DNA of 58,670 nucleotides from an uncultured Holophagales bacterium (GTDB taxonomy: Bacteria > Acidobacteriota > Thermoanaerobaculia > Multivoradales > UBA5704), in NCBI GenBank assembly GCA_963842525.1, contig CAWJGT010000033.1, forward strand, positions 1-58,670, written 5' to 3'. The notes beneath the pieces are model-generated. The model did not search any database. It was not told the origin of the DNA and was given only the letters and a program-made list of their open reading frames with translations. Positions 893-36,138 of this stretch are shown one piece after another. Made by a program: the position numbers and the translations under genes. The first letter of the stretch is position 1; every line of letters starts with the position of its first letter.

Positions 893-1100
893 AGTCCGTC
901 ACCTACGTGGAACTGTCCGATACCTACGCTGAATTGTCCGAAATCTACGCAGACTTGTCCGTTTACTTCTAAGCTCTGTCTGATTTCTATGCATGCCTGT
1001 CCAGATCTGAGCGGATCTGTCCTGTACCTACGCGGATGTGTCTGGTACCTACGCAGGTCTGTCCGTCAATTACGCGGACCTGTCCGATACCGACTTACCC
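893..1100. repeat. Degenerate 21-bp tandem array, 10 units (consensus about TGTCCGATACCTACGCGGANC)
   Basis: GTC(C/T) recurs at 894, 915, 936, 957, 978, 999, 1019, 1040, 1061, 1082 (one 20-nt unit). Confidence 0.85.
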
Positions 1101-2404
1101 TACATCCCGTTCCCCGGCCGATACCTCCGTAGCACGTCGGCCAGCCGCGTGATGATGTCCACGGTGAGGCGCTCCTCCAGCGATGCCTTCTGGAAGAGAT
1201 AGAAGGCCCCGATCGCCTCCCGGTGGATCTCCTCCCCCTCGAAGATCGCCACCAACTCCCCTGTCAGTTGCTTCAACTCCGCGGTGCGGCGTTCCTGGTG
1301 GTAGAGCAGCGAGAGGTCGAGGCAGACCAGGGCGGCGTCGTACGCCATGCCGCGGGCGGCGAACTCCTGCCGAACCTGGTCGAATGTCTCCTCGGCCGCT
1401 CTGAGGTCCCCGAGACCCAAAGCGATGTTGGCCCGAGCCCAGCTCAGGCGGACGAGGTCGAGGGGTTGGCCCAACGCTCCGAAAAGTCCTTCGATCTCGG
1501 GTAGAAGCTGCTCCGCCTGAGGATGCCGTCCTGCCAACAGAAGGCAGCCGAGCAGGTTGTACCGGGCGTAGGCGAACAGGCGAGGCTCACGGGCGAAATC
1601 GACTTGGCCCGGAGCCGCTTGGAGCAGCGAGATTGCCTGATCGAGATCGCCTCGCTCCTCCAAGATTTTGGCCTTAGAGATGATCCCCTTGGCCTGGTCT
1701 ACGAAACTCCCCAGCTCTTGAAACAGGGCAAACGCCTGATCCGCAAGACCCAGGGCCTCGTCGAGTCTTCGTTGAGCGCGGCGCAGCGAACACTTCAGAT
1801 CGAGGATTTCCGCCCTGACGCCGAGATCTCCCGTTGAGCTCCGAGACAGGCATCGCTCTGCCTTACGCATCGCGTCGTCGGCGCTCCTCAGCTCCCCGAG
1901 GACTCGACGCGCGTTGCCGAGATAGGCAAAGGCGCGGGCGCGCAGGTCCCACACCCAGTTCGGGTCGTAGGCCTCGCCCAGATGGCTGGAGATCTTGACG
2001 GCCAGATTGGCGAGATTGACCGCGGCAGCCGGATCTCCGAAAACCGCCTCCCGGCTGCTCTTGAGAAGCAGTTGGCAGAGTCCCCAGGTGTGAAACTCCT
2101 CCTCCTCAACCCGCTTTACCTGTTCCTCGAATCGCAGGTCGGACAATTGACGCCAGAGCTCAGGGGCCTCAAGGCCTTCCAGGACAGCAACCTCCTCGTT
2201 CCAGTGGCCAACCTCCTCTTGCAGCCTGCGAATCTCGCGGCATCGCTCCCGGCATACAGGGCACCATGCCAGGAAGTGAGGCACGACCTGCGTCACGAGC
2301 ACATCCGATTCCAGACCTCCGGACAGCAGCTTTGCCAACGTCTCCAGCGAAAGGTGGGCGTCTTCCACGCTTTTTTCCTCCCAAGGCAACGGGGGCATCT
2401 CCAC
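1100..2404 (-). CDS. Zinc-finger (HxxxCxxC-like) plus TPR-repeat protein, paralog 1
   Basis: N-terminal HFLAWCPVC, then helical repeats (DLRARAFAYLGNARR, REPRL, GMAYDAALVCLDL). Aligns by eye with 10357..11691 and 21320..22652. Confidence 0.85.
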   Translation of the reverse strand: MEMPPLPWEEKSVEDAHLSLETLAKLLSGGLESDVLVTQVVPHFLAWCPVCRERCREIRRLQEEVGHWNEEVAVLEGLEAPELWRQLSDLRFEEQVKRVEEEEFHTWGLCQLLLKSSREAVFGDPAAAVNLANLAVKISSHLGEAYDPNWVWDLRARAFAYLGNARRVLGELRSADDAMRKAERCLSRSSTGDLGVRAEILDLKCSLRRAQRRLDEALGLADQAFALFQELGSFVDQAKGIISKAKILEERGDLDQAISLLQAAPGQVDFAREPRLFAYARYNLLGCLLLAGRHPQAEQLLPEIEGLFGALGQPLDLVRLSWARANIALGLGDLRAAEETFDQVRQEFAARGMAYDAALVCLDLSLLYHQERRTAELKQLTGELVAIFEGEEIHREAIGAFYLFQKASLEERLTVDIITRLADVLRRYRPGNGM

Positions 2405-2413
2405 TCGGAGCTG

Positions 2414-2438
2414 CCCCTCTAGAAGACTAAGTTGCCGG
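2414..2438 (-). promoter_or_regulatory. Candidate shared promoter motif upstream of TPR paralog 1
   Basis: Minus strand CCGGCAACTTAGTCTTCTAGAGGGG, similar to 22727..22751. Contains a -10-like TAGTCT. Confidence 0.4.
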
Positions 2439-2472
2439 AAGGCGTGATTTCGTGACAGCGGGTTTGGCGAGT

Positions 2473-2739
2473 TTAGCCGTTGGGATCGATCGTCATTCCC
2501 TCGTCGCCCGGGTCGGTCACACTGTCCGGGGCGGTCGCGCCGTTCGGATCGATCAACATCCCCTCCCCCTGCCAGACGCCGATGATGAGGGAGCGGAACA
2601 TCTCCCAGAGGCTGCCGGCGGACCAGTCGGAGATGGGCTCATTCGTCAACGGAAAGGCCTGGACGGGAACGGCCGCGAGGACGAGCAGAACGGCGAGGAC
2701 GAGGGCGTTGACACGGTGGTGCAGGTTGCGGGAAGTCAT
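2473..2739 (-). CDS. Small secreted propeptide with two DPNG-ending repeats (copy 1)
   Basis: AGGAG RBS. Signal peptide ending VQA-FPL, then EGMLIDPNG ... DEGMTIDPNG-stop. Homolog at 22835..23116. Confidence 0.85.
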   Translation of the reverse strand: MTSRNLHHRVNALVLAVLLVLAAVPVQAFPLTNEPISDWSAGSLWEMFRSLIIGVWQGEGMLIDPNGATAPDSVTDPGDEGMTIDPNG

Positions 2740-2915
2740 GACAGGACTCTCCTGAGGTTGGATCTCGAGGGCCGGGCGTCATTGCCGGCTCAGTCCATCC
2801 CCATAGGAAAAGTTTGCCCTGAGCGGCAAAGCGGGACCTTCTCGGCCGAAGTGGTGTCCCGAAGCCCTTGCCGGGTTGGGATAGAATCCCTGACTTGACA
2901 TGCCAGGAGGCGCCA

Positions 2916-4722
2916 ATGTCCGTCACCACATTGCCGGAGCTGTTCCTGAAGGCGGCGAGCTACAGCAAGCCTGACTGCCTTCTCCATAAGGTCGGGGGGA
3001 CCTACCAGCCGGTGTCGACCGCCGAGCTGGTCGACCGCGTCCGCCGGCTGGCCAAGGCGCTCGAAGGGCTCGGAGTCGAGCCCGGAGACCGCGTGGCCCT
3101 GATGGCCGAGAACGGGCCGCACTGGCCGACCGTGGACTTCGCGACGCTGTCGGTCGGCGCGGTGCTCGTCCCCATCTATCCGACCCTGCTGCCCGACCAG
3201 GCCTCCTATATCGCCAACGACTGCGGGGCCAAGGTGGTGGTGGCCCATACCCTCCAGCACCTGGACGGGTTCCTCTCGCATGCCGACGACCTGCCCCAGG
3301 TCCGCCAGCTCGTGCTGATCCAGGGCGAGTCGCACGATCCGCGGGTGATCACCCTGTCGGCCCTGCTGGAGCGGGGCGCCAATCCCGACCCGGTGGCGTT
3401 CGAGCAGAAGGCCCGCACCGCCAAGCCGGACGACCTGGCGACGTTCATCTATACGAGCGGCACCACCGGCCAGCCCAAGGGGGTCATGCTGACGCATCGC
3501 AACATCGTCTCGAACGTCGTCGCCGCCATGGAGGCGCTGCCGCTCGACGGCAAGTTCACGGCGCTGTCGTTCCTGCCGCTCTCGCACTCGTTCGAGCGCA
3601 CGGTCGACTACTGCTACTTCTATATGGGTTGCAGCATCGCGTATGCGGAGTCGGTGCAGACTGTGGCGCAGAACCTCCAGGAGGTCAAGCCGCAGGTCTT
3701 CGTGTCGGTGCCCCGGGTCTATGAGAAGGTGCTGTCGCGGGTGCAGGAGAACGTCGCGTCCAGCTCGCCCGGCAAGCAGAAGATTTTCGCCTGGGCGCAG
3801 CGGGTGGGCCGCGAGGCCTTGCCCTGGCGGATCAAGCACCAGAGGCCGCCGGGTTTCCTCGGCTTGAAGCTCACTTTGGCCGACAAGCTGGTCTTCGGCA
3901 AGATCCGGGAGCGCCTGGGCGGCCGTTTCAAGTTCGCCCTCTCCGGCGGCGCCCCCCTGGCCCGCGAGGTCGCCGAGTTCTTCTGGGGCGCCGGCATCGA
4001 GATCTACGAGGGGTACGGCCTGTCCGAGACCGCGCCCGTGCTTTCCGTCAACACGCCGTCGGCGGTGAAGATGGGCACGGTCGGCCGGCCCATCCCGGGG
4101 GTGGATATCCGGATCGCCGAGGACGGCGAGATCCTGGCCAAGGGCCCCAACATCATGAAGGGCTACTGGAACCTGCCGGAGGCCACGGCAGAGGTGATCG
4201 ACGAGGAGGGCTGGTTCCACACGGGCGACATCGGCGAGCTCGACGCCGAAGGGTTCCTGCGCATCACGGACCGCAAGAAGGAGCTGATCATCAACGCCTA
4301 CGGCAAGAACGTGGCTCCGGCGCCGATCGAGAACGCGCTCAAGTCCAGCCGCTTCATCGGCCAGGCGGTAGTGCTCGGCGACCGCCGCAAGTTCCTGTCC
4401 GCGCTGCTGGTGCCCGATTTCGAGGTGCTCAAGCCGTGGGCCGAGCGGCAGGGGATCGGCGCGGCGGACAACCAGGCGCTGCTGCGCGACCCCCGGGTGC
4501 GCGAGCTGTTCGCCGCCGAGGTGAAGGAGCTGCAATACGAAGCTGGCGAGCTTCGAGAAGATCGTGGCCTGGGACTTGCTGCCCGATGAGTTCACGCTGG
4601 AGACCGGCGAGCTGACGCCGACCCAGAAGGTCAAGCGCCGGGTGGTCAACCAGAAGTACGGCGACGTCATCGAGCGCCTCTATAAAGAGGCCGACGAGCG
4701 CGCCGCGGTGGTACCGGGGTGA
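2916..4722 (+). CDS. fadD: Long-chain fatty acid-CoA ligase (frameshift near 4533)
   Basis: AGGAGG RBS. AMP-binding motifs YTSGTTGQPKG, EGYGLSET, GWFHTGDIG. C-terminus (GELTPTQKVKR) continues in a shifted frame to TGA 4722, overlapping the next GTG. Confidence 0.9.
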
Positions 4723-6854
4723 ATTCCAACTTCCATCTCGAGGTCGGCACGGACCGGCTGGCGACGCTCACGTTCGATGCGCCGGGCCGGAAGGTCAACG
4801 TCTTCTCCCGGGCCGCTCTGGAGGAGCTGGAGCAGGTGATCTCCGCGGCCGCCGCGCGCAAGGACATCGGCTGTCTGATCCTGCTCTCCGGCAAGAAAGG
4901 GTCCTTCATCGCCGGCGCCGACGTCGAGGAGATCGCGCGGGTCACCGACCCGATCGAGGCGGAGGCCGGCGTGCGGGTGGGGCACCGGCTGTTCGCGGCC
5001 TGGGAGGCGCTCCCCTTCCCCACGGTGGCCGCGATCCACGGCACCTGCCTGGGCGGCGGCACGGAGATCTCGCTCGCGTCGACGTACCGCGTGGCGAGCG
5101 ACGGCACCGCGACCCGTATCGGCCTGCCCGAGGTGAAGCTCGGCATCATTCCGGCCTGGGGCGGCTCGACCCGCCTTCCCCGGCTCATCGGAATCGCCGA
5201 GTCGCTCGACCTGATCCTGACCGGCCGCACGGTCGCCGGCCGCAAGGCCCTGCGGCTCGGGCTGGTCGACGCCCTGCTCCCGGAGGCCCGTTTCCTCGAC
5301 GTCCTGCGCGATTTTGCCCTGGAGCGCATCGACCGCAAGGAGCGCCCGTCCTCCTCGGGCGTTGACTTCAAGGAGCTGCTGCTGGAGAAGAACCCACTGG
5401 GACGCAAGGTGATCTTTGACCAGGCGCGCAAGAAGACCCTGGAAGAGACGCACGGGCACTATCCGGCGCCGCTGCGCGCCATCGAGGTCATCCGGATGGG
5501 GATCGAGGACGGGATGCGTGCCGGCTTCGACGCCGAGGCCCGCGCCGCGGCCGACCTCGCCACCTCGCGGATTTCTAAGAACCTGATGCATGTCTTCCGG
5601 CTGTCCGAGGACGCCAAGCGCACGGCCGGCCTGCCCGGAGGCGAGCCGCGGGAGGTCCACCGCACGGCCGTCCTCGGCGCCGGGGTCATGGGAGGCGGCA
5701 TCGCCCAGCTTGTCGCCCACGAGGCGGATCTGCCGGTACGGATGAAGGACGTCAACACCGAGGCACTGGCGAGCGGCATGGCCCACGCCTCCGCGCTGTT
5801 CGACCGGCTGGTCAAGCGGCACCGGCTGGAGGCCCCGGCGGCGCGGCGCAAGATGACGCTCCTCACCTCGACCCTGGACTATTCGGGTTTCCGCAACGTG
5901 GACCTCATCATCGAGGCGATCGTCGAGAAGCTGGAGGTCAAGCAGGCCGTTTTTGCGGAGCTGGCCCGGCAGGTGTCCGACGACGCGGTGCTGGCTTCGA
6001 ATACCTCGTCGTTGTCGATCGGCAGGATCGGAGAGCGGACGCCGCATCCGGAGCGGGTGGTGGGCATGCACTTCTTCAACCCGGTCCACAAGATGCCGCT
6101 GGTCGAGGTGATCGCTGCCGAGGGGGCCGACCCGTCGGCTGTCAACACGGTCTTCGCCTTCACCCGGCGGCTGGGCAAGACGCCGGTCCTGGTCAAGGAC
6201 TCCCCCGGCTTCCTGGTCAACCGGCTGTTGATGTTCTATTCGGCGGAGGCCTTCTGGCTGCTCGACGAGGGCTACCGCATCGAGGATCTGGACCGCGCCA
6301 TGTCCGATTGGGGCATGCCCGTGGGTCCGATGGCGCTCGCCGACGAGGTGGGGATCGACGTGGCCAACAAGGTGGCGCACATCCTTGCCGAAGCGTTCAG
6401 CGACCGGCTCCATTTCCCCGCCTGGCTGGACCGGCTGACCGCGGACGGACGGCTGGGCAAGAAGAACGGCAAGGGCCTCTACCGCTACGAGGGACGGGAG
6501 AGGAAGGAGCCCGATCCCTCCGTCTACACCTTGCTGGGGCTCCACCCGAAGGCGAGCGACCCCGACCCGGGCCGCATCGCCGACCGCACGGTGCTGCCCA
6601 TGGTCAACGAGGCGGCGCGCTGCCTGGAGGAGGAGGTCGTGCGGAGCGCGGCCGAGCTCGACCTCGCGATGATCTTCGGCTCCGGTTTCCCGCCGTTCCG
6701 CGGCGGCCTCTGCCGCTGGGCCGACCAGGAAGGCCTCGGCCAGATCGTCTCCACCCTCGAGCGCCTGGCCGGCACGGTCAGCGACCGCTTCCTCGCCTCC
6801 GACGCCCTCCGCCGCACCGCCGAAGCCGGCGGCTTCTACACCCGGTTCGGGTAG
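4719..6854 (+). CDS. fadJ: Fatty acid oxidation complex alpha subunit (enoyl-CoA hydratase / 3-hydroxyacyl-CoA dehydrogenase)
   Basis: FIAGAD, CLGGGTE, GLPEVKLG, GAGVMG, ASNTSS, GMHFFNPV, PGFLVNR. Confidence 0.9.
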   Translation: MNSNFHLEVGTDRLATLTFDAPGRKVNVFSRAALEELEQVISAAAARKDIGCLILLSGKKGSFIAGADVEEIARVTDPIEAEAGVRVGHRLFAAWEALPFPTVAAIHGTCLGGGTEISLASTYRVASDGTATRIGLPEVKLGIIPAWGGSTRLPRLIGIAESLDLILTGRTVAGRKALRLGLVDALLPEARFLDVLRDFALERIDRKERPSSSGVDFKELLLEKNPLGRKVIFDQARKKTLEETHGHYPAPLRAIEVIRMGIEDGMRAGFDAEARAAADLATSRISKNLMHVFRLSEDAKRTAGLPGGEPREVHRTAVLGAGVMGGGIAQLVAHEADLPVRMKDVNTEALASGMAHASALFDRLVKRHRLEAPAARRKMTLLTSTLDYSGFRNVDLIIEAIVEKLEVKQAVFAELARQVSDDAVLASNTSSLSIGRIGERTPHPERVVGMHFFNPVHKMPLVEVIAAEGADPSAVNTVFAFTRRLGKTPVLVKDSPGFLVNRLLMFYSAEAFWLLDEGYRIEDLDRAMSDWGMPVGPMALADEVGIDVANKVAHILAEAFSDRLHFPAWLDRLTADGRLGKKNGKGLYRYEGRERKEPDPSVYTLLGLHPKASDPDPGRIADRTVLPMVNEAARCLEEEVVRSAAELDLAMIFGSGFPPFRGGLCRWADQEGLGQIVSTLERLAGTVSDRFLASDALRRTAEAGGFYTRFG

Positions 6855-10356: not shown

Positions 10357-11691
10357 ATGCGGGCCGACGATACCGAGCACCCCGAATCCGCAGCATTCAG
10401 CCGCCTGGCCCTGGGCACGGCTTCACCCGAAGAGACCCGGCGGATCGTCCGCCATCTGTTGCGAGGCTGCACGTCCTGCAGCCGGAGGGCTGAAGCGGCC
10501 CGCACCCCGGCCACCCCTCCGCCGAGCAGCTACGACGAGGTCTTCGAGCGCCTCGAGCGCCGGATCACCGCAGGCCTGGACCGGCTGGAGAACGAGCGCC
10601 AGGAGCGCGGGACGGCGCACCAGCTCTATGCCGAGCTGCTCGCCCACGAAGCTGTCCAGGGGCTGGCGCAGCTCCACAGCACCCGCCGGTACGCCAGCCT
10701 GGCCCTCTGCGAGCTCCTGTTGCAGACCGCCCGCGACATCGGGATCGACGACCCCGCGCGCGCCCGCCGGGCGACCGAGCTGGCCGTCCGGGTGGCCGAG
10801 CAGCTCGACCTCGACCTCTATGGCGCTCCCGTGGTGCAGGACCTGCGGGCGATCGCCTGGGCGTACCTTGCCGACACCGGCCGGGTGCAGGCCGACCTGC
10901 GTCTGGCCGAGAGCTCCCTGGCCACCGCCGAGCTCCTGCTGGAAAAGGGGACCGGCGACCCGCTGGCCCGCGCCGAGCTGATGACCGTCAAGGCCTCGTT
11001 GCGCGCCTACAGCGGCCGTTTCGACCGGGCGATCCAGCTCCTCAATCGGACGGCCACCATCTACCGCCGGGCCGGCGACCGCCACCTCCTGGGCCGCACC
11101 CTGCTCAAGAAAGGCACCTTCTACGGCAACGCCGGCGAGCCGGAGCTCGCCGTGCGGCTGATCCACCGCGCGATCGACCTGATCGATGTGTCGCGCGAGC
11201 CGCGGCTGATGATCTGCGCCACCCACAACCTCATCTGGTTCCTCCAGGAGGGCGGGCGCACCGGGCAGAGCGCCATCTGGCTGGAGGGCGCCCGCCGGCT
11301 GTACCAGCGGGCCGGCGACCGCCGGGACCTCGGCCGGCTGCGCTGGCTGGAGGGGAAGATCGCCCGAAAACCCCGCGAGGCCGAGGCGGCGCTGCTCGCG
11401 GCCCGGGAAACCCTGGCCCGCGAAGGGCTCGCCTACGAAGCGGCCTTGGCCGCCATGGACCTGGCGGTGCTCTACGCCAGCGAAAGCCGCAGAACCGAAA
11501 TGAACCGCCAGACCGAACAGATGCTCCCGCTCTTCCGCTCGGACGACATGTACCGGGAGACGCTGATGGCGCTCAGCTCCTTCGACCCCTCGGCACGCCG
11601 GGAGCCGGTCGCCCTGCTGGCGGAGCTCGGGAGCTATCTCGACAGCGCCTGGCAGCGGAGCAATCCGCGTTCCCTGGCTCCACCCGTATAA
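10357..11691 (+). CDS. Zinc-finger plus TPR-repeat protein, paralog 2 (no adjacent peptide gene)
   Basis: HLLRGCTSC, DLRAIAWAYLAD, GTGDP, REPRL, GLAYEAALAAMDL. Starts 9 nt after the helicase stop. Confidence 0.85.
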   Translation: MRADDTEHPESAAFSRLALGTASPEETRRIVRHLLRGCTSCSRRAEAARTPATPPPSSYDEVFERLERRITAGLDRLENERQERGTAHQLYAELLAHEAVQGLAQLHSTRRYASLALCELLLQTARDIGIDDPARARRATELAVRVAEQLDLDLYGAPVVQDLRAIAWAYLADTGRVQADLRLAESSLATAELLLEKGTGDPLARAELMTVKASLRAYSGRFDRAIQLLNRTATIYRRAGDRHLLGRTLLKKGTFYGNAGEPELAVRLIHRAIDLIDVSREPRLMICATHNLIWFLQEGGRTGQSAIWLEGARRLYQRAGDRRDLGRLRWLEGKIARKPREAEAALLAARETLAREGLAYEAALAAMDLAVLYASESRRTEMNRQTEQMLPLFRSDDMYRETLMALSSFDPSARREPVALLAELGSYLDSAWQRSNPRSLAPPV

Positions 11692-11740: not shown

Positions 11741-12925
11741 ATGCCCGGACCCTCGCACCAACTCTCCGACCCGGAGCTCCTCGCCCGCCTGGTCGCCTTC
11801 GATTCGACGAGCCGCAACAGCAACCTGCCGATCGCCGGTTTCCTCTGCGACTATCTCGACCGGCCCGGCATCCGGATCGACCGCAACCCATCGCCCGACG
11901 GCGGCAAGGAGAACGTGGTCGCCTGGGTGGGCCCGGAGCCGCGGGACGACCGCGCCGGCCTGGTCCTCTCCGGCCACATGGACGTCGTCCCGGCCGACGA
12001 GGACGGCTGGCGGAGCGATCCGTTCACCCTGGCCGACGAGGGGGACCGCTGGGTCGCCCGCGGCGCCTGCGACATGAAGGGGTTCCTGGCCCTGGCGGCC
12101 AACCTCGCGGTCGAAGCTGCCGCAAGCGGGCGCCTGCGCGCGCCCCTGGCCCTGGTCTTCACCTATGACGAGGAGGTCGGCACCCTGGGAGCGCGGCGCC
12201 TCCTGGAGAGCTATCCCGAGGGTCGCGCCCTGCCGCGCAGCGCCATCATCGGCGAGCCGACCTCCCTTCGGGTGGCGCGCGCCCACAAGGGGCATCTCAA
12301 GCTGCGGATCACGCTCCGCGGCCGCAGCGCGCACAGCGGCTATCCGCACCTGGGCGTCAACGCCATCGAGCCGGCCGGCCGGGTGGTCAACGCCCTCGTC
12401 CATCTCCGCGAAGAGCTGGAGCGGGAGACCGCGCTGAATCAGGACCTCTTTCCGGAGGTGCCGTACGTGCCGCTCAACATCGGCACCGTCCACGGCGGCT
12501 CGGCGATCAATATCGTGCCGGACCGCTGCATCGTCGAGGTAGGCATCCGTCCTCTCCCAGGGGCCTCCTCCGAAGAGCTCACCGAGCGGGTGCGCCGGGC
12601 CGCCGTCGCGGCTGCGGCTCCCCTGGAACCGAGTTTTGAACCGAACATCGAGGTGCTTTCCGACAGCCCGCCGATGCTCCTCGACGAGAGCGCGCCGATC
12701 CACCGCCACCTCTGCGGCCTCGTAGGGCAGGAGCACGGCGCCACGGTCTCCTTCGCCACCGACGCCGGCTGGCTCCAGCAGCTCGGCATCGACTGCGCCA
12801 TCTTCGGGCCCGGGACGATCGAAGTGGCCCACAAGCCGAACGAGCACCTGCCCAAGGAGGAGCTCGCCGCGGCCCGCGGCCTGCTGGAGCGCACCGTCCG
12901 CCGGTTCTGTGAGGAGACGGCATGA
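11741..12925 (+). CDS. argE: Acetylornithine deacetylase (M20 family)
   Basis: LSGHMDVVP, RGACDMKG, YDEEVG, IIGEPT, AHKPNE. Confidence 0.9.
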   Translation: MPGPSHQLSDPELLARLVAFDSTSRNSNLPIAGFLCDYLDRPGIRIDRNPSPDGGKENVVAWVGPEPRDDRAGLVLSGHMDVVPADEDGWRSDPFTLADEGDRWVARGACDMKGFLALAANLAVEAAASGRLRAPLALVFTYDEEVGTLGARRLLESYPEGRALPRSAIIGEPTSLRVARAHKGHLKLRITLRGRSAHSGYPHLGVNAIEPAGRVVNALVHLREELERETALNQDLFPEVPYVPLNIGTVHGGSAINIVPDRCIVEVGIRPLPGASSEELTERVRRAAVAAAAPLEPSFEPNIEVLSDSPPMLLDESAPIHRHLCGLVGQEHGATVSFATDAGWLQQLGIDCAIFGPGTIEVAHKPNEHLPKEELAAARGLLERTVRRFCEETA

Positions 12926-17993: not shown

Positions 17994-19127
17994 ATGTCCA
18001 CCGTGATTCAGAAAAGCTCTCCTTCCGTTCTAACGCTGACAAATCCCGCAGACTTTCATTCCTTTGTCATCGCCGAAGCGCTCCGCCGGAAGGGAGTGCC
18101 CGTGGCGCTCTGGCATGGAACCGACTTTCCAAGCCGGCAGACGGCTTCTGTCTCGCTGGATCCCGACCTTGATCACTGGGAGATCCTCGGCCCAGAATTG
18201 GAGCTGGGTAACCACAAGTTCTCCACCGTGTGGATGAGGCGACCTGGCCGACCACTAGTTCCTCTGGAGATAGATCCGGCGGACCAGCAGTTCGCGCTTC
18301 GCGAGTGCAGATACTTCCTTGCGGGTCTATACCGCGCAGCAGGAGCAGATGCGTTCTGGGTAAACCCTATGGGGTCCGCAAGCCGTGCGGACATCAAACT
18401 CGAACAGCTCAGAAGCGCGGTCAGGGCAGGTTTCAAAATTCCTCGAACACTGCTGAGCAATGATCCGGCAAGAATCCGGGCGTTCCTACGAGCCAACCCG
18501 GCTTGCATCTATAAATCGTTTTACCCCGTCTCTTGGTATACGCCCGACTATTCCGCGGTTCTTTTCAGCTCAATATGTAAGGAGGTCGATCTCCCGGATG
18601 ACCCCTTACTGAAACTGACTCCCGGCATCTTTCAGACTCTTGTGCCAAAGTCTTACGAGCTGAGAGTCACAGCAATGGGAAATACACTTTTCACCGCGAA
18701 ACTCGAATCGCAGGGGCTTTCCAGTGCGCAGATAGACTGGAGAGCAGCCACCGAGCCTTTTCCGCTCGAACCTGCCGAACTGCCGGGGGCCGTGGCCGAG
18801 GCTTGTCGTCATGTCATGAAGGATCTGGGAATCGTCTACGGGTGTTTTGACCTCATCGTAACGCCAGAAGGTGATTACGTTTTTCTCGAGGTCAATGAGA
18901 TGGGAGCTTTCCTCTGGATCGAGGAGCAGAACCCGGACTTCAGATTGGTGGATGCATTCTGTCAATTTCTTGTCGAGGCGACTCCTGACTTTCGGTGGCA
19001 ACGCGCGGCGACGCCCGTCCCCTTGGCAGATGTTCATGCGCGGGCCCTTCAGGCAATGGAGATAGAAGCTGCAGCGGCTCATGTACCAAAGGAATCAGAG
19101 ACCCTGCGCGACAACTTCGAGGCATGA
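17994..19127 (+). CDS. ATP-grasp peptide maturase (MvdC/MvdD-like)
   Basis: VWMRRP, FWVNP, KLEQL..A...GFKIPRTLLSND, FQTLVPKSYELRVT, IDWR, YGCFDLIVTPEGDYVFLEVNEMG. Confidence 0.9.
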   Translation: MSTVIQKSSPSVLTLTNPADFHSFVIAEALRRKGVPVALWHGTDFPSRQTASVSLDPDLDHWEILGPELELGNHKFSTVWMRRPGRPLVPLEIDPADQQFALRECRYFLAGLYRAAGADAFWVNPMGSASRADIKLEQLRSAVRAGFKIPRTLLSNDPARIRAFLRANPACIYKSFYPVSWYTPDYSAVLFSSICKEVDLPDDPLLKLTPGIFQTLVPKSYELRVTAMGNTLFTAKLESQGLSSAQIDWRAATEPFPLEPAELPGAVAEACRHVMKDLGIVYGCFDLIVTPEGDYVFLEVNEMGAFLWIEEQNPDFRLVDAFCQFLVEATPDFRWQRAATPVPLADVHARALQAMEIEAAAAHVPKESETLRDNFEA

Positions 19128-21275
19128 TCGTACTGTCGAAGGCGATGAGGCTGCTTGCAGCGGAAGCCTCAGCTTCCGGTCAAAGAAATCCACCGTGGCC
19201 CGATAGGCCGCGATCCAATTGGACCAGGCCAGGAATGAGTGCACGTCGTCGGGAAAGACGAGTTGCTCCACCTCGACCTTGCGCTCGCGGAGAGCCTCGA
19301 CCAGCTTCACCGTCTCGTTGAACGGGACGTTCCTGTCGTCGTCGCCGTGGATCACCAGGACCGGGGAGCGCCAGGTGTCCAGCCAGGCCAGGGGCGAGGA
19401 CTCGAAGGCGAGCCGCGCCTGCTCGGGGTGCTCCAGCGGGTTATAGGCGGGGATGAAGTTGCGGATTACCGTGTTCCAGTCGTGCACCCCGTGGAAGTCG
19501 ACCCCGGCCGCGAAGAGATGGGAAGCCTTGGCGAGGCCGAGCGCCGTCAGGAAGCCGCCGTAGGAGCCGCCCCAGAGGCCGATACGCTGCGGATCGACGT
19601 CGGGCCGGCTGCGCAGGTAGAGCCCCGCACCCAGCACATCGCTGAATTCGCTGGCTCCCCCAGCCCCCTGGCTCAGGGCCTCCCGGAACTCCATGCCATA
19701 GCCGGTCCCGGCCCGGAAGTTCACCGCCAGCACCAGATAGCCACGGCTCGCCAGGTACTGGTTCATGCCATAGGCGTTGTTGTAATACGGGCTGTAGTGC
19801 CAGCCCAGGAGCATCTGCCGGTGGGAGCCGCCATGGAGGAACAGGAGCGCCGGCCGCCGCTCGCCCGCGGAGATGCCCCGCGGCACGAAGAGCTGACCGT
19901 GGATCGGCATGCCGTCGGCCGAGCTGAACACGATCGGCTCGGGCTCGACCAGCGCGCTCTCGGGATAGTCGGCCGGGAGGGGTGCGAGGGAGCGGTGCTC
20001 GCCACCTCCGAGAGCGCCGGGCGTGACCACGGCCTCGGCAGGCCGGCGCGCGCCGGCGCGGAACCAGGCGAGCGTCGAGCCGTCGTGGGTCACCGCCGGC
20101 ATCCACTCGATCCCCTTCCCGCGGGTGATCGCGACGGGCGGGCCGCCGGCCACGTCCACCCGCCAGAGGTGGCGCCGCTCGATGTCGTCCTGGTTCGAAT
20201 TGAAGATCGCCTGGCGCCGGTCGGGAGTGAGGATCACGTTCTCGATTTCGAAGTCGCCCGGTGTGAGGAGCGTCGCCTCCCCGCCTTGCGCCGGCACCGA
20301 GTAGAGATGCAGCCAGCCGTCCCGCTCCCAGGGAAAAACGAGCCGGTCTCCGGCCCCCCAGAGGAGCTGGTTCGCGGCCACCATTTCGTGGAAGACGCTC
20401 CCCTTCCCCTCCTTGGCCTGCCAGACGGTCTTCGCCTGGCCGGTGGCCACGTCGGCCACCAGGATGGACCAGGGCTGGGACTCGCGGTTCGCATAGAACA
20501 GGGTGATCTTCGTGGAGGCGGGAATCCGCAGGAAGGCGAGGCGCTTGCCGTCCGGCGACCAGACCGGCTCGCTGTCCTGGTCCACGCTCGGAGCGATCCA
20601 GCGCAGAGTTTTCGCCTCCGCATCGTAGACTCCGACGAAGCTGTGGTCGCCGCGCCCGCTGACGAAGGCGAGCTTCAAGCCGTCCGGAGACCAGCGCAGC
20701 GATCCCGCACCGCCGCGGGCCTGGACCCACTGCCGCACCTCGCCATTTTTGCCGTCGAGAGGGGCCCAGAAGATCTTGCCGCCGCGGACGAACGCCACGC
20801 CGCCGCCCCGGGGCGACACCACCGCACCGCTCCCGAGCGAGACCTTCACCGGCTCGCCACCGCCGTCGGCCGCCACGCGCCAGACTGCCTGCTCGGCACC
20901 TGCCGGATCGCTCGTGGGGTTGGGGATCTCGCCCTTGCTGTTGCCGCCACCCCCTCGCACGTAGACGACAGTCTTCGCATCGGCCGTCCACTGGAGGCCG
21001 GTGATCGTCTGTCCGTCGTCCTTGGTGTAGCGGGTGACCGGCCGGCCGCGGTAGTCAGGGGGCTCGGCGACCCAGAGGTTGCGCACGCCCCGGTCGTTCT
21101 GCACCCAGGCGAGCTTGCCCCCGGCCGGCGACGCGAGCATCTCCGAGGGAAACGGAGCGCTCAGGATCTGCTCCAGCGTCGGCCTTCCCGGCTGCGCCGC
21201 CAGAGGGGCGGCGAAGGCCAGGAGGACGAGGAAGAAACCGCACAGACGAGCAGCAGCGGATGGCTTCAAAGGCAT
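19095..21275 (-). CDS. Secreted S9-family (prolyl oligopeptidase/DPP-like) peptidase
   Basis: Signal peptide, WSPDG propeller repeats, GGSYGG nucleophile, HGDDDRNV, DDVH. Confidence 0.9.
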   Translation of the reverse strand: MPLKPSAAARLCGFFLVLLAFAAPLAAQPGRPTLEQILSAPFPSEMLASPAGGKLAWVQNDRGVRNLWVAEPPDYRGRPVTRYTKDDGQTITGLQWTADAKTVVYVRGGGGNSKGEIPNPTSDPAGAEQAVWRVAADGGGEPVKVSLGSGAVVSPRGGGVAFVRGGKIFWAPLDGKNGEVRQWVQARGGAGSLRWSPDGLKLAFVSGRGDHSFVGVYDAEAKTLRWIAPSVDQDSEPVWSPDGKRLAFLRIPASTKITLFYANRESQPWSILVADVATGQAKTVWQAKEGKGSVFHEMVAANQLLWGAGDRLVFPWERDGWLHLYSVPAQGGEATLLTPGDFEIENVILTPDRRQAIFNSNQDDIERRHLWRVDVAGGPPVAITRGKGIEWMPAVTHDGSTLAWFRAGARRPAEAVVTPGALGGGEHRSLAPLPADYPESALVEPEPIVFSSADGMPIHGQLFVPRGISAGERRPALLFLHGGSHRQMLLGWHYSPYYNNAYGMNQYLASRGYLVLAVNFRAGTGYGMEFREALSQGAGGASEFSDVLGAGLYLRSRPDVDPQRIGLWGGSYGGFLTALGLAKASHLFAAGVDFHGVHDWNTVIRNFIPAYNPLEHPEQARLAFESSPLAWLDTWRSPVLVIHGDDDRNVPFNETVKLVEALRERKVEVEQLVFPDDVHSFLAWSNWIAAYRATVDFFDRKLRLPLQAASSPSTVRSCLEVVAQGL

Positions 21276-21319
21276 GGGACCTCCCCCGAAATCGGGGGAG
21301 ATCATCTCACGCCGTGCCT

Positions 21320-22652
21320 TCAGATCTCCGGTGCATCGAACCGCAGGTTCGGATTGTACTGAGCGCGGCGGAGATAGACAGCGACCTGATTGACCACCTG
21401 CAGGCTGGCCTTCTCAGCTTGGGCGGCGCGCTGGAGGAAGGTGAGCGCAGCCAGGGCTTCGCGGTGGATCTTGAGCGAGGAGAAGATGGGGAACATTTCC
21501 TCGGCCAGCCTCTTCAGGTCCGCCGTCCGCTCCTGCTCAGCGTACAGGGTCGCGAGCTCCAGGGAGACCAAGGCCGTGTCGTAGGGAATGCCCTCGGACA
21601 CGAAACCCTCGCGGGCGGCGAGGAAAAGCGATTCGGCCTGCTGAAGCTGACCGAGCCCATGCACGATCTTTCCCTTCACCCACTTCCGCCGATTCTGGGT
21701 CCATGCGTCGGTGAAGTCCCTGTAAAGAGACCGGCTCTGGCGATAGAGGATCTGTGCCTCGCCGAATCGCCCCGCCTCGGCCAGATCGTCGATCAGGTTG
21801 TTCCGGGCGCACAGCAGGAGACGCGGTTCCCGCTCGGAGTCGATGAGCTCGATGGATTGATAGAGGAGAGGAATGGCTGCCTCTGGATTGCCCATATGGT
21901 GGTGAACGTTCTCCATGTTCAGGAGGGACCTGCCGGCCCGGTGTCGGTGACCGTACTGGAGGAAGATCGAAACCGCCCGCCGTAGCAACCGAAGAGCGTC
22001 ATCGAAACGGCGCTGATCTCTTGCTAGAGAAGCCTTCAAATCCAACAGAATGGCCCGTTCCACAGTGTCTCCAGTCCCCTTCGAGAGATGGGCTTCGGCC
22101 CGTTCGAAGGCCTCTTCCGCCCCATGGAGGTCAGACCGCACCCGCCGCGAGTTGCCCAGGTAGCCCCAGGCCCTCGCTCGGAGGTCCTCGACCAAGCCGG
22201 GTTTGTAGGAGCTGTAGTCCAAGTGATCCGAGACCCGAAGGGCCAGTCCGGCCAATGCCTCCGATTCAGTCGGGTTCCGGATACAGGTCTCCAGACTCCG
22301 CTCGATCAGTAGCTCGAAAAGGCCCCACGTCTGGAGCCGGGGGGAGTCGCGGATCAGGAGGCTCCCGCTGCTCCGGCGGATGCCCCAGCAGTTCCACGAA
22401 CAATCCGGGTGCCTCGAAACGCTCCTTCTCCATGGCCTGGAACTGGCCCGCCAGCGCCTGCTGCCCTCGGTCGATCACCTCGTCATAGCTGGCCATGGCC
22501 ACCTCGGGGGGCTCGCGGCGCCGGTTCTTCAGGTATTGGAGCCGATGTCGGCAATACGAACACCGGGAGAGGTGCTCCAGCACCGTCCGGTGCTCGCTGT
22601 CCAGACACAGGTAGAGCTCCTCCAGGATGAAGTCGTTCGGATGGATCTTCAA
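21320..22652 (-). CDS. Zinc-finger plus TPR-repeat protein, paralog 3 (1-nt frameshift near 22360)
   Basis: GAGGAGG RBS, TTG start, HLSRCSYC. After a shift it reads LLIRDSPRLQTWGLFELLIERS.., joining ORF 21320..22255 (DLRARAWGYLGN, GTGD, REPRL, GIPYDTALVSLEL). Confidence 0.85.
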
Positions 22653-22693
22653 AAGCCCCTCCTCTCGTGTCCTGTTTCGATGAACAGCCTGGA

Positions 22694-22710
22694 TTTGACG
22701 TGGCGTCAAA
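22694..22710. promoter_or_regulatory. Perfect palindrome, operator-like, upstream of TPR paralog 3
   Basis: TTTGACG-TGG-CGTCAAA. Confidence 0.45.
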
Positions 22711-22726
22711 CGACGTCTCTGAAATA

Positions 22727-22751
22727 CCCTTTCAAGAATACTAGTTGCCGG
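22727..22751 (-). promoter_or_regulatory. Candidate shared promoter motif upstream of TPR paralog 3
   Basis: Minus strand CCGGCAACTAGTATTCTTGAAAGGG, similar to 2414..2438. Confidence 0.4.
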
Positions 22752-22779
22752 CCAGAAACAAAACGGGACAACGGAAAGC

Positions 22780-22819
22780 AAAAAGAGAGGCGCCAGGCGA
22801 AGAGGCCCGGCGCCTTTTG
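22780..22819 (-). terminator. Intrinsic terminator after DPNG peptide gene 2
   Basis: Minus strand AGGCGCCGGGC-CTCTTC-GCCTGGCGCCT followed by CTCTTTT. Confidence 0.65.
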
Positions 22820-22834
22820 ACGAAACGACAAACT

Positions 22835-23116
22835 CTAGCCGTTAGGGTCCATGTGGCTCCCCGCGTCTCCGCCGTTCGGATTGCCACCCCCGCCATCTCC
22901 TGTCGTTCCGTTAGGGTCCATCTGGCATCCCTCCTGCTGCCAGATCGCCGTCAAGCCCGAAAGACGGGAGGCGACCCACTCCCACACGGCGGCGAAGCCC
23001 ACCGGCTGCCGGGGATCGAGGGACTGCGAGCTCGACAGCGGCAGGGCGTGCGCGGTCACGGTCAGCAGGCAGGTCAGGACGAAGGCGACGACGATGCGGT
23101 AGGTGTTCCGAGACAT
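22835..23116 (-). CDS. Small secreted propeptide with two DPNG-ending repeats (copy 2)
   Basis: GAGGAG RBS. Signal peptide ending AHA-LPL, then WQQEGCQMDPNG ... DAGSHMDPNG-stop. Confidence 0.85.
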   Translation of the reverse strand: MSRNTYRIVVAFVLTCLLTVTAHALPLSSSQSLDPRQPVGFAAVWEWVASRLSGLTAIWQQEGCQMDPNGTTGDGGGGNPNGGDAGSHMDPNG

Positions 23117-23269
23117 GGTGTCTCCTCTTCAGCGGTCCTCCAGGGACGGCCTCCATGGCCGGGCGGGGACCTTCTGTCTGAAGAGTGCTACTTATTCCCT
23201 GAAACCGTGTCAGAAAGAGGACACACCGGGGCCATGGCGGCCCTCACGTTTCGGGAAGGAGGAACTCAG

Positions 23270-24051: not shown

Positions 24052-25046
24052 TCAGACCTCGTGTCCAGCCGCGGCGAGCAGGGCCCGGCGGACCGTCACG
24101 CGCGCCAACTGGATCTTGTAGCGGTTCCGGGAGAGCGCCTTGGCCCCCTGGACCGCGGCTTCGCCAGCCTTGGCCGCAACGTCCTCGTCGATCCCCTTGC
24201 CCTGCAGGTACTGCTCGGCCTCCTTGGCGGTCCAGGGGATCGGCGCCACCTGCCCCAGCACGACCCGCGCCCGTTTCACCTGGCCGCCATCCATCTCCAG
24301 GGCCACCGAGGCCGTGGCCAGCGACCAGTCGAGCGTCTCGCGCTGCCGGACCTCGTAGCTCGCGATCAGCCGTCCGGCGGGAGCGCCCAGTGTCACCTCG
24401 GTGACGATCTCGCCGGGCGCGAGGTCGTGCTCGCGCTCGCCTTCGTTGGCCGGAATGCGGTAGAGGCTCTCGAGCTCGATCCGCCGCTCGCCACCCGGGC
24501 CGTGGAGCGCCACCTGGGCGTCCAGCGCGATCAGCACCGGCGCCAGCGTCGACGGGCTCACGAAGCAGGCCGGCCCACCCCCATCGTTGCCGAGGATCGC
24601 GTGATAGCGGTTGTCGCCTTCGAGGACCATCGACTTGCCATCCCGCTGGGCCAGAAGCCCGAAGCCGTTGCGGAAATACCAACAGCGCGGGCGCTGGCAG
24701 AGATTGCCCCCGACCGTGGCGACATTGCGGATCTGCGGGCCCGCGAGCCGGCCGGCCGCGTCGGCCACAACCGGATAATCCAGACGCACGGCCGTGTCGG
24801 ACGACAGCTCGTCGAGGGTCGTCAGCGCGCCGATCCGGAAGCCGGTCTCCGGGCTGTAGCGGATTCCCCGCAGCTCGCCGATCGACTTGAGGTTGACCAG
24901 CCGCGCAGGGGCCTCGACGCCGTCCTTCATCAGGGCGAGGAGGTCGCTGCCGCCCGCCAGGACGCGGCACGCCCGTCCGGAGCGCCGGTCAGGAGCTTGA
25001 CAGCCTGCTCTTTGGTCGCCGGGTTGGCGTATTCGAAAGCATGCAT
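24052..25046 (-). CDS. Xanthine dehydrogenase-family FAD-binding subunit (frameshift near 24970)
   Basis: MHAFEYANP from ATG 25046. LAGGSDLL, QIRNVATVGGNLCQRPRC, NRYK. Confidence 0.85.
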
Positions 25047-27193
25047 CAGCCGCCCCTCTTCCCTGGGCTTCCAGGGCGTCGAGCACCCGCTGCGGCGTGA
25101 GCGGCAGGTAGGGGACGCGCACTCCGAGGGCGTTGGCGACCGCGTTGGCGATGGCGGCTCCGGGCGAGATGACCGGCGGCTCGCCGAGGCCGATGACGCC
25201 GCGCTCGTCGTAGCCCGGCCCGGTCATCATGTGGACGACCAGCTCTCCGACGTCGCCGATGCCGGCCAGCTTGTAGGACTCGAAGTCGACGTTGAGCATG
25301 GTGCCGGTGACCGGATCGATGACCTTCTCTTCCGACAGGGCGTAGGAGATGCCCATGATCAGGGCGCCGTAGACCTGGCTCTCCGCGGTCTTGAGGTCGA
25401 TGATCAGCCCGCAGTCCTGGACCGCCACCATCTTCTCGACCTTGACGATCCCGGTCTCGGCGTCCACCGAGACCTCGGCCATCTGGACGCCGCCGGCGCC
25501 GCTGCCGGTAAGCTCACCCGGCCCGGGGTTGGCTCCGGTGGCGGTGACCGGCGCGCGGCCGAACAGGGCCGCCGCCTGCCGCCAGGTGAGATGCCTGTCG
25601 GGAGCACCCTGGACGCGGATCGTGCCGTCGGCCGCCTCCAGCTTGTCGGATGTGGCCCCGAGCTGCGGCGCCGCCTTGGCGAAGACCATGGCGAGAGCGT
25701 TCTGCGCCGCCCGCCGGGTGGCCGCGCTAATCGCCGCCCACGGTGGTGCTGCCGCCCGAGCCGCCCGAGGCCGGATAGCGGCTGTCGCCGATGTTGACCC
25801 GGACCGCCTCCAGCGGCAGCCCGAGGGTCTCGGCAAGGACGATGGCCACCACGGTGCGGCTGCCGGTGCCCAGATCCTGCGTCGCGATCTTGGCCTCGAC
25901 GCCACCGTCGGGCTGGAGGGTCACCTCGCAGTTGCTGCGGTGGCCGCGCCCGCCCCAGGTGTGAAGCGACAGACCGAGGCCTCGGCGCTTGATCCGGAAC
26001 CTGTCTTCGTCCGGCTCGAGCCGCGCGGGTGCCAGCGCTCGCGCCAGCCCATGAGCTTCGCGGCAACCTCCAGCTCCTCGGCGTAGACCTTCTCCATCGG
26101 GCCTGCGATCGGGAGGTTCTTGCGGAAGAAGTCGAGCGGGTCCATCCCCAGCTTCGCGGCCAGGTCGTCCAGGGCGGACATGGAGAGATAGCAGCCCTGG
26201 GGATGGTTCGGCGCCCGCCAGGCACGCGAGCTGGCCGTATGGGTGGGGATCGACGAATGCCGGTGCCGGCGGTTCGGGATCTGGAAGACATAGGGGAGCG
26301 GCGGGTTGCCCGAGCCGCCGAGGCCGCCCGAGCCCCAGGACCGCGAGACCCAGGAGGTAAGAATTCCGTCCGGCGAAGCGCCCACCTCGATCTCGGCATA
26401 GGCCGACGGGCGGTCGCCCGCCACCGTCAGCTCCGCGTCGCGCTCCAGCATCAGCTTGACCGGCGCGCCCGCCTCGCGCGCAAGCTCGGCGCACTCGATG
26501 CCCCAGCGGTCGGGGCTGAACTTGCTGCCGAAGCCGCCACCCATGTACTGGGTGACCACGCGGACGTTCGACGGCGGGATGCCAATCTGCTCCGCGAACT
26601 GCGGAGCCAGAGCCGGACACCGCCTGCGTCGAGCACCAGGCCGTCATCTCGTCCTTGGCCGTCCACTCGCAGACCTGGCCGTGGGGCTCCAGACAGTTGT
26701 GGGCGACCAGCGGCATGCCGTAGTACCCTTTATGACGGACCGCGGCGGAGCCCAGGGCGCCGTCGGGATCGCCCACCGTCTCCTCCTCGCCAGGCTTGAC
26801 CCCGGGCGCCTGGTCGACGTGCTCGTCGTCCACCCAGTGCGGCAGCACCTCGTATTCGACGGTCATGGCGCGGACGGCGTCCTCCGCGATCTCCTCGCTC
26901 GTGGCGGCCACCACGGCCACCTCGTCGAGGGCCCACTGCATCTCCGTGCCCACCCCCTGGATGACGCGCACGGCCTTGACGCCGGGCAGGGCCTGCGCAA
27001 CCGTGACGTCGAGCTTCGTGACCCTGGCGTGCGCGTGGGGGCAGCGCAGCACCTTGGCGAAGAGCATGCCGGGACGGTTGACGTCGTAGCTGTACTTGGC
27101 GGTGCCGGTCACCTTGGCCGGACCGTCGAGGCGCGACACCCGCGTGCCGATCAACCGCCGCGCTTCGGCCTTGGGCCAGTCATGCTCGGCCAT
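25045..27193 (-). CDS. Xanthine dehydrogenase-family molybdopterin-binding subunit (several frameshifts)
   Basis: RLDGPAKVTGTAKY, HNCLEPH, GGGFGSK, WRAP, QDLGTGS, GGSTT, GLGEPP, spread over ORFs 25727..27193, 25921..26559 and 24052..25905. Confidence 0.85.
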
Positions 27194-32204: not shown

Positions 32205-32217
32205 CTGGAGGAATCCG

Positions 32218-35548: not shown

Positions 35549-36138
35549 ATGAGCCGAAAACTCCGTTTCATGCCATCCGAGGGGAGCGGTCTCGTCGAGG
35601 TCACCACCCGGACCGTCCACGGCCGCTTCCTGCTCGCTCCCTCTGAGGAGCTCAACGACCTCATCATCGGCGCCCTTGGACGTGCCCAGGAGCTCTACCC
35701 AGTCCGCCTTGTCGCCTTCGCCTTTGCCTCCGGGCACTATCACCTCCTCCTCCAGGTCGACGACACCCGCCAGCTCTCATCATTCATGAACCACTTCAAC
35801 TCCAACCTCGCCCGCGAAGGCGGGCGCCTGACCGATTGGCGTGAGAAGTTCTGGTCCCGCCGCTTCCAGGCAATCCCGATCAGCGATGAGCCCCAGGCCC
35901 AGATCGAGCGTCTCGCGTACATTCTGAGCCACGGGGTCAAGGAGGGACTTGTTGAGCGCATCCGGGACTGGCCGGGCGTCAGCGTCGTTCCCGCCCTGCT
36001 GGACGGCACTCCCCTCGTCGGCCACTGGTTCAGTCGCTCGCGCGAGTACGCAGCGCGCCAGAGGGGCGAGTCCTTCCACCGCCTCGACTTCGCCACCGAA
36101 TACACGCTTCATCTTGAGCAGCTACCCTGCTGGGCCGG
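35549..36138 (+). mobile_element. RAYT/Y1 (HUH) transposase-like gene, apparently C-terminally truncated
   Basis: VTTRT, HYH (HUH), NSNLAR, FWSRRF, YILSH, DWPG. Codon style changes after LPCWAG (about 36138). Confidence 0.7.

Follow-up and report, generated by a model that had tools for sequence, protein, structure and literature searches.

The 58,670-nt stretch of DNA analysed here (the window; positions 1 to 58,670 of contig CAWJGT010000033.1, GenBank assembly GCA_963842525.1, from an uncultured Holophagales bacterium) carries two short open reading frames (ORFs) on its minus strand, at 2473..2739 and 22835..23116, and both are true genes, the products of which are pro-peptides, probably exported by Sec, that belong to a large and so far undescribed family. 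Each is followed by a gene for a TPR protein, and this gene pair is conserved across Thermoanaerobaculia (Acidobacteriota). The peptide and the pair are absent from curated families, from the literature searched and from language-model neighbour descriptions. The reading that we put first, tentatively and at well short of an even chance, is that the precursor is a multi-core exported pro-peptide whose turn motif would be sensed by the neighbouring TPR protein, so that by its sequence features and by analogy the pair would represent an RRNPP-like signal and its receptor.

Peptide gene 1 (2473..2739, minus strand) encodes 88 residues and is matched by the hidden Markov model (HMM) of the family with an E-value of 1.1e-26. 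Its signal peptide (residues 1–28, nt 2656–2739) ends in VQA and is followed by FPL. Downstream lie a Trp-containing amphipathic segment, SLWEMFRSLIIGVWQ (residues 43–57, nt 2569–2613), a first core, EGMLIDPNG (residues 59–67, nt 2539–2565), a linker of 11 residues (nt 2506–2538) and a second core, DEGMTIDPNG (residues 79–88, nt 2476–2505), with the stop codon (nt 2473–2475) directly after it. Peptide gene 2 (22835..23116, minus strand; 93 residues, E 1.9e-23) is laid out in the same way, with a signal peptide at residues 1–24 that ends in AHA and is followed by LPL, the Trp segment AVWEWVASRLSGLTAIWQ between the signal and core 1, core 1 EGCQMDPNG (nt 22907–22933) with a Gly-rich linker after it, and core 2 DAGSHMDPNG (nt 22838–22867), again directly before the stop. 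The four-part design of signal, Trp segment and two cores that the initial annotation had described in both copies was therefore confirmed in the two ORFs, the products of which align with each other with 33% identity (E 7e-7). The third-position GC content of peptide genes 1 and 2 (0.88 and 0.85, respectively) is similar to that of the accepted genes of the window, the overall GC content of which is 67%, and a Shine-Dalgarno-like AGGAG/GAGGAG sequence is found 5' of the ATG in both. Together with the conserved homologues described below, this coding-like composition and the Shine-Dalgarno-like sequence establish that the genes are real; a spurious opposite-strand ORF was considered and is ruled out by the third-position GC and the homologues. 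The six-frame motif search that had been suggested as a check gave, with the pattern widened to G..[IML]DP[NDSH]G, four matches in the window, all of them inside the two peptide ORFs, against a mean of 0.09 in first-order Markov simulations, none of 200 of which contained four.

A word-based search identified four close homologues of the window peptides, with 61–75% identity and two or three cores, all four of which terminate at the Gly of the last core. A profile built from these four and the two window peptides was scored against 1.84 billion cluster representatives, 540 of which matched at E ≤ 0.001 and 22 with an E-value of 1e-10 or better; the motif first noticed in the window is strongly conserved. 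Family statistics were compiled from the 150 best matches plus the five first sequences, from which the 148 members shorter than 160 residues (the short members) were kept; P0127, P0137, P0186, P0201, P0245 and P0254 were left out as too long. P0127 is a long cadherin-like protein that matches the peptide profile only by way of its own repeats, and it was set aside as unrelated. Family members are mostly 75–150 residues in length. By heuristic criteria, a positively charged N-region followed by a hydrophobic run is present in 147 of the 148 short members and a small-x-small motif followed by x-Pro in 121 of them, and a Trp lies no more than 30 residues before the first core in 145 (98%). The multi-copy design proposed from the two window copies is general, the short members containing two (29), three (69), four (40) or five (10) cores. 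Single-core forms are present in related loci, in some of which (for example L051, L058 and L061) the core ends at the stop.

Over 475 cores the consensus is [D/K/E][E/A/N]-G-x-x-[I/M/L]-D-P-x-G, in which the Gly at position −4 and the Asp are each conserved in 99% and the Pro and the last Gly in 100%, whereas the third position of D-P-x-G is occupied by N (52%), D (25%), S (14%) or H (5%). The observation that the cores end exactly at the stop holds for both window copies but not for the family as a whole, the last core forming the exact C-terminus in 69 of the 148 short members and being followed by a tail of 1–10 residues in the remaining 79. Among the members that end at the last Gly, Asn occupies the third position in 74%, compared with the 52% overall. 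The spacers between cores range from 3 to 19 residues. At the four variable positions of the core, agreement is 61% within one precursor and 28% between precursors. A Cys subtype, G-C-x-x-D-P-x-G, accounts for 45 of the 148 members, and in 38 of these 45 a closing Cys follows the unit; the two Cys residues would, from their placement, close a loop around the turn, and the presence of paired Cys flanking each core fits an oxidising destination.

At E ≤ 1 neither window peptide matches Pfam or NCBIfam, none of the PADLOC defence systems is matched by the peptide or TPR proteins, and the ESM Atlas neighbours of the peptide are unnamed Acidobacteriota clusters. Literature searches on the DPNG motif and on acidobacterial tandem-repeat peptide precursors returned nothing relevant. 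Three of the long profile matches, P0137, P0201 and P0245, are large secreted proteins of 639–783 residues that contain some 25–35 tandem units of the form G-x-x-[ILM]-D-P-N-G-[KR] with a period of about 9 residues, as well as an N-terminal domain that is conserved and a C-terminal one in which DEWDxE[VI][VL]KR repeats occur. Pfam recognises no family in any of these three proteins, and the D-P-x-G unit is also an unannotated repeat of large secreted proteins.

The TPR gene directly 3' of peptide gene 1 (TPR partner 1; 1100..2404, minus strand) has a longest ORF of 434 residues, and its start is likely to be the GTG at 2368, which gives a product of about 422 residues, near the family norm of 423. 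TPR partner 2, 3' of peptide gene 2 (21320..22781, minus strand), shares 39% identity with partner 1 across 304 residues (E 3e-58) and is spread over two frames, one encoding the N-terminal His/Cys part (22266–22781, minus strand) and the other the TPR part (21320–22255, minus strand, in a frame that is open upstream to about 22470), with the frame change around 22330–22370. Pieces of the TPR family of about 200 residues are also found in other long assemblies, and for this reason an assembly indel is as likely a cause of the split as a pseudogene. Pfam recognises TPRs alone in both proteins, as TPR_12 in partner 2 (E 8.3e-22, above cut-off) and as TPR_MalT in partner 1 (E 6.7e-11; its 42.5 bits fall slightly short of the cut-off of 45), and neither a signal peptide nor a membrane segment was seen in the TPR partner. 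The TPR family comprised 885 proteins at E ≤ 1e-5 among 8000 candidates scored, mostly of 423 residues, recorded as 'TPR repeat protein', 'MalT-like region' or 'hypothetical' and originating from metagenome-assembled genomes (MAGs) of Thermoanaerobaculia or Acidobacteriota. An AlphaFold2 model of the TPR protein (pLDDT 88.7) has a helical N-domain followed by an all-α TPR superhelix. The best Foldseek match of this model is LGN/Pins (E 2.5e-7, TMq 0.53), and the matches are peptide-binding TPR superhelices; RapF, RapJ, RapI, RapH and domain III of MalT were found at E 1e-5 to 1e-4, RapF at E 9.8e-6 with a TMq of 0.52, values that LGN and designed TPRs equal or better.

The N-terminal 104 residues of the TPR protein form about six helices, and a separate model of this part reaches a pLDDT of 80. 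Within the first 100 or so residues H15, P40, H41, C46, C49, H65, W66 and E74 are invariant in 37 sequences down to 36% identity, so that an early His is followed by an H-x4-C-x2-C motif at a helix junction. To judge from this pattern, the His/Cys set resembles a metal site and is probably Zn-binding. Zinc anti-sigma factors of the ZAS/ChrR type are cytoplasmic proteins with an H-x3-C-x2-C helical domain and a C-terminal sensor domain. The TPR protein resembles them in being cytoplasmic and in its early His, its H-x4-C-x2-C motif at a helix junction and its separate, putative sensor domain; it differs from them in the spacing of the motif, in having no match to zf-HC2, to PDB sequences or in Foldseek and in having no sigma-factor gene conserved nearby in the 80 loci described below. 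Identity with a ZAS anti-sigma factor was rejected as unsupported by any of the searches made. Seven N-terminal fragments gave no relevant match in Pfam at E ≤ 10 and none to zf-HC2; a PDB profile search of the domain gave Cdc37 as its best match, at a meaningless E of 0.12, with no anti-sigma chain among the matches; a Foldseek search of the domain model gave a best E of 6.9, a weak test, since such searches have difficulty with small helical domains; and a search among short proteins for free-standing relatives returned just 11 fragments from the protein's own family.

The pairing of the two genes was established in a sample consisting of the best 80 of 210 TPR-related loci from species-representative genomes, fetched by TPR alignment. 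All 80 loci derive from MAGs of Thermoanaerobaculia or Acidobacteriota (one carries the label Holophagales), and the HMM of the 148 peptides was run on every ORF. In 77 of the 80 loci the TPR gene has a family peptide gene within 500 bp and on its own strand, upstream in 69 and downstream in 8; of the remaining three, L073 has a divergent single-core member upstream, and in L065 and L077 the contig breaks off on the side concerned, and the pairing therefore holds in 78 of 78 judgeable loci. Six extra peptide matches were found on the other strand, each about 100–130 bp upstream of a second TPR paralogue (about 30% identical). Four further extra TPR paralogues were present, three cut by locus ends and one (in L079) with no peptide match of its own. 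Two paralogous pairs are present in the window, and at least two in 13 of 63 sampled assemblies. Clustering of the neighbours in the 80 loci revealed no conserved modifying enzyme, protease, exporter or sigma factor beside the pair. The sample does not cover the neighbourhoods of the Cys subtype or of locus-2-type pairs, and x-M-DPNG cores of the pair-2 kind occur in none of the 80 fetched loci.

In the signal and receptor reading, a pre-pro-peptide would be exported and its signal removed, leaving a pro-region with one to five copies of a 9–10-residue unit, [D/K/E][E/A/N]-G-x-x-[I/M/L]-D-P-[N/D/S/H]-G, the D-P-x-G end of which would form a tight turn and which in the Cys subtype would be closed by a disulfide. 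Proteolysis outside the cell or in the periplasm would release or expose the units, and a unit would reach and bind the TPR superhelix of its cognate neighbour, three or four variable positions giving it a flavour specific to the precursor; binding would then alter the action of the His/Cys domain, probably Zn-binding, on a partner. All of the steps after export are our inference. Complex prediction for the TPR protein with residues 29–88 of the pro-region, each supplied as an alignment, gave a score of 0.21 against a mark of 0.32, which speaks neither for nor against binding.

A survey of RRNPP systems (PMC10075063) describes them by a pro-peptide of 10–100 residues, Sec export, a receptor of 250–500 residues, TPRs and adjacent genes. 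In the window the pro-peptides are of 88 and 93 residues, the receptors of 422–434 residues contain TPRs, and the genes are direct neighbours, while Sec export is indicated by heuristics only (147/148 for the N-region and hydrophobic run, 121/148 for the cleavage motif, with VQA|F and AHA|L in the window copies). The tandem pheromones of RRNPPA systems, as set out in PMC11343458, are present in one to four copies, mostly at the C-terminal end of Sec-exported pro-peptides of 50–120 residues. The reading of the pair as signal and receptor rests on this fit in form to five features together with the precedent of tandem pheromone copies, and the one-to-one adjacency of the peptide gene to a gene for a cytoplasmic TPR protein fits a released signal. 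In Rap-Phr and other RRNPPA systems (PMC11343458, PMC10075063, PMC9765709), as here, a gene for a small Sec-type pro-peptide stands beside that of a cytoplasmic TPR protein of 250–500 residues, the C-terminal unit is repeated (one to five copies here, one to four there) and several paralogous pairs may occur per genome. According to PMC11343458 some Rap receptors act on proteins through a helical N-domain and not on DNA, and the protein described here is similarly without a helix-turn-helix (HTH) and has a helical N-terminal domain. The pair differs from RRNPPA systems in that its TPR protein has no significant sequence similarity to any RRNPPA receptor and in that the N-domain, which is without known relatives, contains an invariant set of His and Cys residues. 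It also differs in its diderm acidobacterial host, in the position of the peptide gene, mostly upstream and with its own terminator, in the Trp helix conserved in the pro-region, and in a D-P-x-G that is near-invariant instead of diversified.

A number of observations weigh against a released pheromone. The host is diderm, so that a 9–10-mer would have to cross the outer membrane twice, and no linked oligopeptide permease was found in the window neighbourhood or the 80 loci. A short pheromone would have no need of the Trp segment, yet 145 of the 148 short members retain it, which suggests that the mature protein functions as a whole. D-P-x-G and Gly(−4) are near-invariant across all paralogues, and paralogues of the same genome often differ little (for example GM[ST]IDPNG and GA[SG]IDPSG), so that orthogonal 'pherotypes' are not evident. 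The tandem units of the large secreted proteins suggest a structural extracellular role of the unit. On the receptor side, Pfam finds no HTH, and the N-domain has no match in Pfam, PDB sequences or Foldseek; neither a Rap-type three-helix effector domain nor an HTH was found in it by Pfam or Foldseek. The Foldseek matches of the whole model are of a kind that any TPR superhelix would give, the eukaryotic LGN being the top-scoring one, and a PDB profile search of the TPR protein gave weak generic TPR matches in which RapH (E 0.044) and RapF (E 0.75) are not significant. Finally, the window contains a third TPR/His-Cys paralogue (10357..11691, plus strand; 444 residues, 33% identity, E 1e-31, with the H-x4-C-x2-C motif), within 9–13 kb of which there is no DPxG peptide gene. 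This third gene is followed by an M20 peptidase gene (11741–12925), an arrangement also seen in a cluster that occurs in six of the related loci (for example L005).

The main rival reading, which we hold to be only slightly less probable than the first, is that the product works as a whole, as a miniprotein secreted from the cell or located in the periplasm. It would consist of a Trp amphipathic helix and one to five β-turn units, perhaps binding metal or a surface, with the TPR protein as a dedicated cytoplasmic regulator or the product of a co-regulated gene and not as a receptor. The retention of the Trp segment, the near-invariance of G(−4), D, P and G across paralogues and the existence of a TPR paralogue with no peptide gene at all are as would be expected of it, the 9-residue period of the long relatives is like that of a structural repeat, and similar promoter-like elements precede both genes of the pair. 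Nonapeptide β-roll repeats of the RTX type share the period of about 9 residues with these long relatives, as well as the Gly/Asp-rich turn and the hydrophobic position; G-x-x-[ILM]-D-P-N-G-[KR] nevertheless does not fit GGxGxDxUx, and the spacers of the small proteins are irregular, their range of 3–19 residues making a regular fold unlikely. A regulator would moreover be one with no recognisable DNA-binding domain, and a strict one-to-one adjacency that has persisted through many duplications and a change of gene order (69 upstream, 8 downstream) is more typical of cognate partners. The TPR domains of Hop and PEX5 recognise free C-terminal peptides, and the TPR protein might in the same manner bind the unexported precursor in the cytoplasm, by the C-terminal ...DPNG or the amphipathic helix, as a chaperone, targeting factor or sensor of export capacity. 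The two proteins share the compartment in which they are synthesised, and the last core is the C-terminus in 69 of 148 members, where Asn is enriched; this alternative is nonetheless improbable given the tails that follow the last core in the other 79, the internal cores that would be left with no role, and the absence of any link of the TPR protein to the Sec machinery.

The initial annotation had offered as a further alternative a repeated-core precursor of a ribosomally synthesised and post-translationally modified peptide (RiPP), with cores modified in trans by enzymes encoded elsewhere. The layout of a leader and repeated cores is shared with cyanobactin-type RiPPs and with fungal Kex2-processed repeat proteins, in which one leader precedes several near-identical cores with variable spacers, and the TPR proteins match the NCBIfam family HaaT (RiPP-associated TPR) weakly, at E 6.6e-4 and 1.2e-5, far below the cut-off. 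That match covers generic TPR repeats only, and no modifying enzyme, protease or exporter is conserved beside the pair in the 80 loci. A Sec signal is unusual among bacterial RiPP leaders, and the precursors described here differ from the cyanobactin and Kex2 types in this leader, in having no linked maturation enzyme and in their TPR neighbour. We consider a RiPP very improbable. Less probable still is a reading in which the Asp-Pro and Asn-Gly bonds are a built-in clock or self-cleavage site that limits the life of a signal; the initial annotation had envisaged a chemical decay timer, and this is not supported. Asp-Pro bonds are labile to acid, and some proteins cleave themselves at such bonds, and the pair is conserved in 99% (Asp) and 100% (Pro) of the cores; Asn, on the other hand, is found at the third position in only 52% of them, with D, S or H in 44%, so that deamidation of Asn-Gly cannot be the selected feature. 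The residues N, D, S and H at this position fit the textbook type I β-turn preference of D-P-[N/D/S]-G. A bacteriocin with its immunity protein was also considered and was rejected, a TPR protein of 423 residues being unlike known class II immunity proteins.

Acidobacteria are abundant soil bacteria that are rarely cultured, and to our knowledge almost nothing is known of cell-cell signalling in them; peptide-and-receptor signalling pairs have so far come mainly from Gram-positive bacteria. The conserved, multi-paralogue peptide/TPR module is a concrete and testable signalling candidate in this phylum, the peptides being synthesisable and the TPR protein soluble. Peptide quorum sensing by cytoplasmic receptors is called a hallmark of Firmicutes and their mobile elements in PMC10075063, and the portions of the RRNPP surveys at hand cover Firmicutes and mobile elements only, with no mention there of Acidobacteria. 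It is conceivable, although we consider it doubtful, that the module is a first case of RRNPP-like peptide signalling in a diderm phylum, with β-turn (D-P-x-G) nonapeptides that exported multi-core precursors would release and that a disulfide would close in one subtype, a new class of cytoplasmic TPR receptor and, in place of an HTH, a Zn-binding, anti-sigma-like output domain. Should the whole-acting miniprotein be the correct explanation, the family would still make up a large group of so far unnamed secreted repeat proteins that has a regulator dedicated to it.

The peptide and TPR genes look like separate, similarly controlled transcription units. Between the stop of peptide gene 1 and the start of TPR partner 1 lies a promoter-like element of the form TGTCACGAAA ... 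N ... CAACTT (2425..2459, minus strand), and a similar one, TGTCCCG ... CAACTA, precedes TPR partner 2 (22739..22772, minus strand). A window-wide search with a pattern for this element gave one match (2429–2457) against 0.22 expected, which is not significant alone; the weight of the element derives from its recurrence, as TGTCACGAAA ... N ... ACT, at the equivalent place between the peptide and TPR genes in related loci. Directly 3' of peptide gene 2 is a terminator-like GC-rich hairpin with a T-run (22778..22814, minus strand), and of 69 intergenic regions, 67 from related loci and two from the window, 50 have such a structure after the peptide stop; none is found after peptide gene 1.

Promoter-like elements are also present upstream of peptide gene 1 (2806..2838) and peptide gene 2 (23181–23213), both on the minus strand, each followed by a leader hairpin, which for gene 1 is imperfect and lies just 5' of the Shine-Dalgarno sequence (2756..2802, minus strand) and for gene 2 is located at 23130..23174 (minus strand). 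This conserved 5' leader, consisting of a promoter-like element and an imperfect hairpin of 40–45 nt, is found in 51 related loci as well. Single-sequence folding gave the hairpin in 53 of 53 leaders, with a median z of −1.8 against mononucleotide shuffles and 22 of the 53 below −2. The sequences of the stem clearly diverge between clades whereas its shape is retained; RNAalifold on MAFFT alignments of the leaders recovered two or three pairs and did not find the hairpin, and compensatory change is therefore seen by eye only. The leader and intergenic regions have no match in Rfam. With its own promoter-like element, leader hairpin and, mostly, its own terminator, the peptide gene can be expressed apart from the receptor gene.

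Beyond the pair itself, the conserved neighbours in the 80 loci are a fadD-like gene in 26 and a fadB-like gene in 22, the others being scattered and unrelated. In the window these correspond to an operon for a fadD-like acyl-CoA synthetase and a fadB-like multifunctional enzyme (2868–6854, plus strand) that is divergent from peptide gene 1. The operon could be the target of the module or could reflect plain conserved synteny, and control of this divergent fatty-acid degradation operon by the system is conceivable in the main orthologue group. A gene for a FadL-like outer-membrane protein is located 3' of the fadD/fadB operon in seven loci. At the second pair, a gene for a secreted S9 prolyl-oligopeptidase/DPP-IV-like protein with PD40 repeats (19095..21305, minus strand) starts 15 bp after TPR partner 2, and a post-Pro-cutting enzyme such as this could be able to cut D-P|x-G. 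Proteins with PD40/DPPIV_N also adjoin second pairs in a cluster that occurs in three related loci (for example L049).

Further along the window, a xanthine-dehydrogenase/CO-dehydrogenase-like large subunit (24052–27193, minus strand) is broken up among three or more overlapping frames, the C-terminal piece continuing into the FAD subunit; an intact paralogous set is present at 30383–34398. The broken genes suggest assembly indels or gene decay. An ORF resembling an IS200/Y1 transposase lies at 35549–36331 on the plus strand (Pfam Y1_Tnp, E 1.5e-6).

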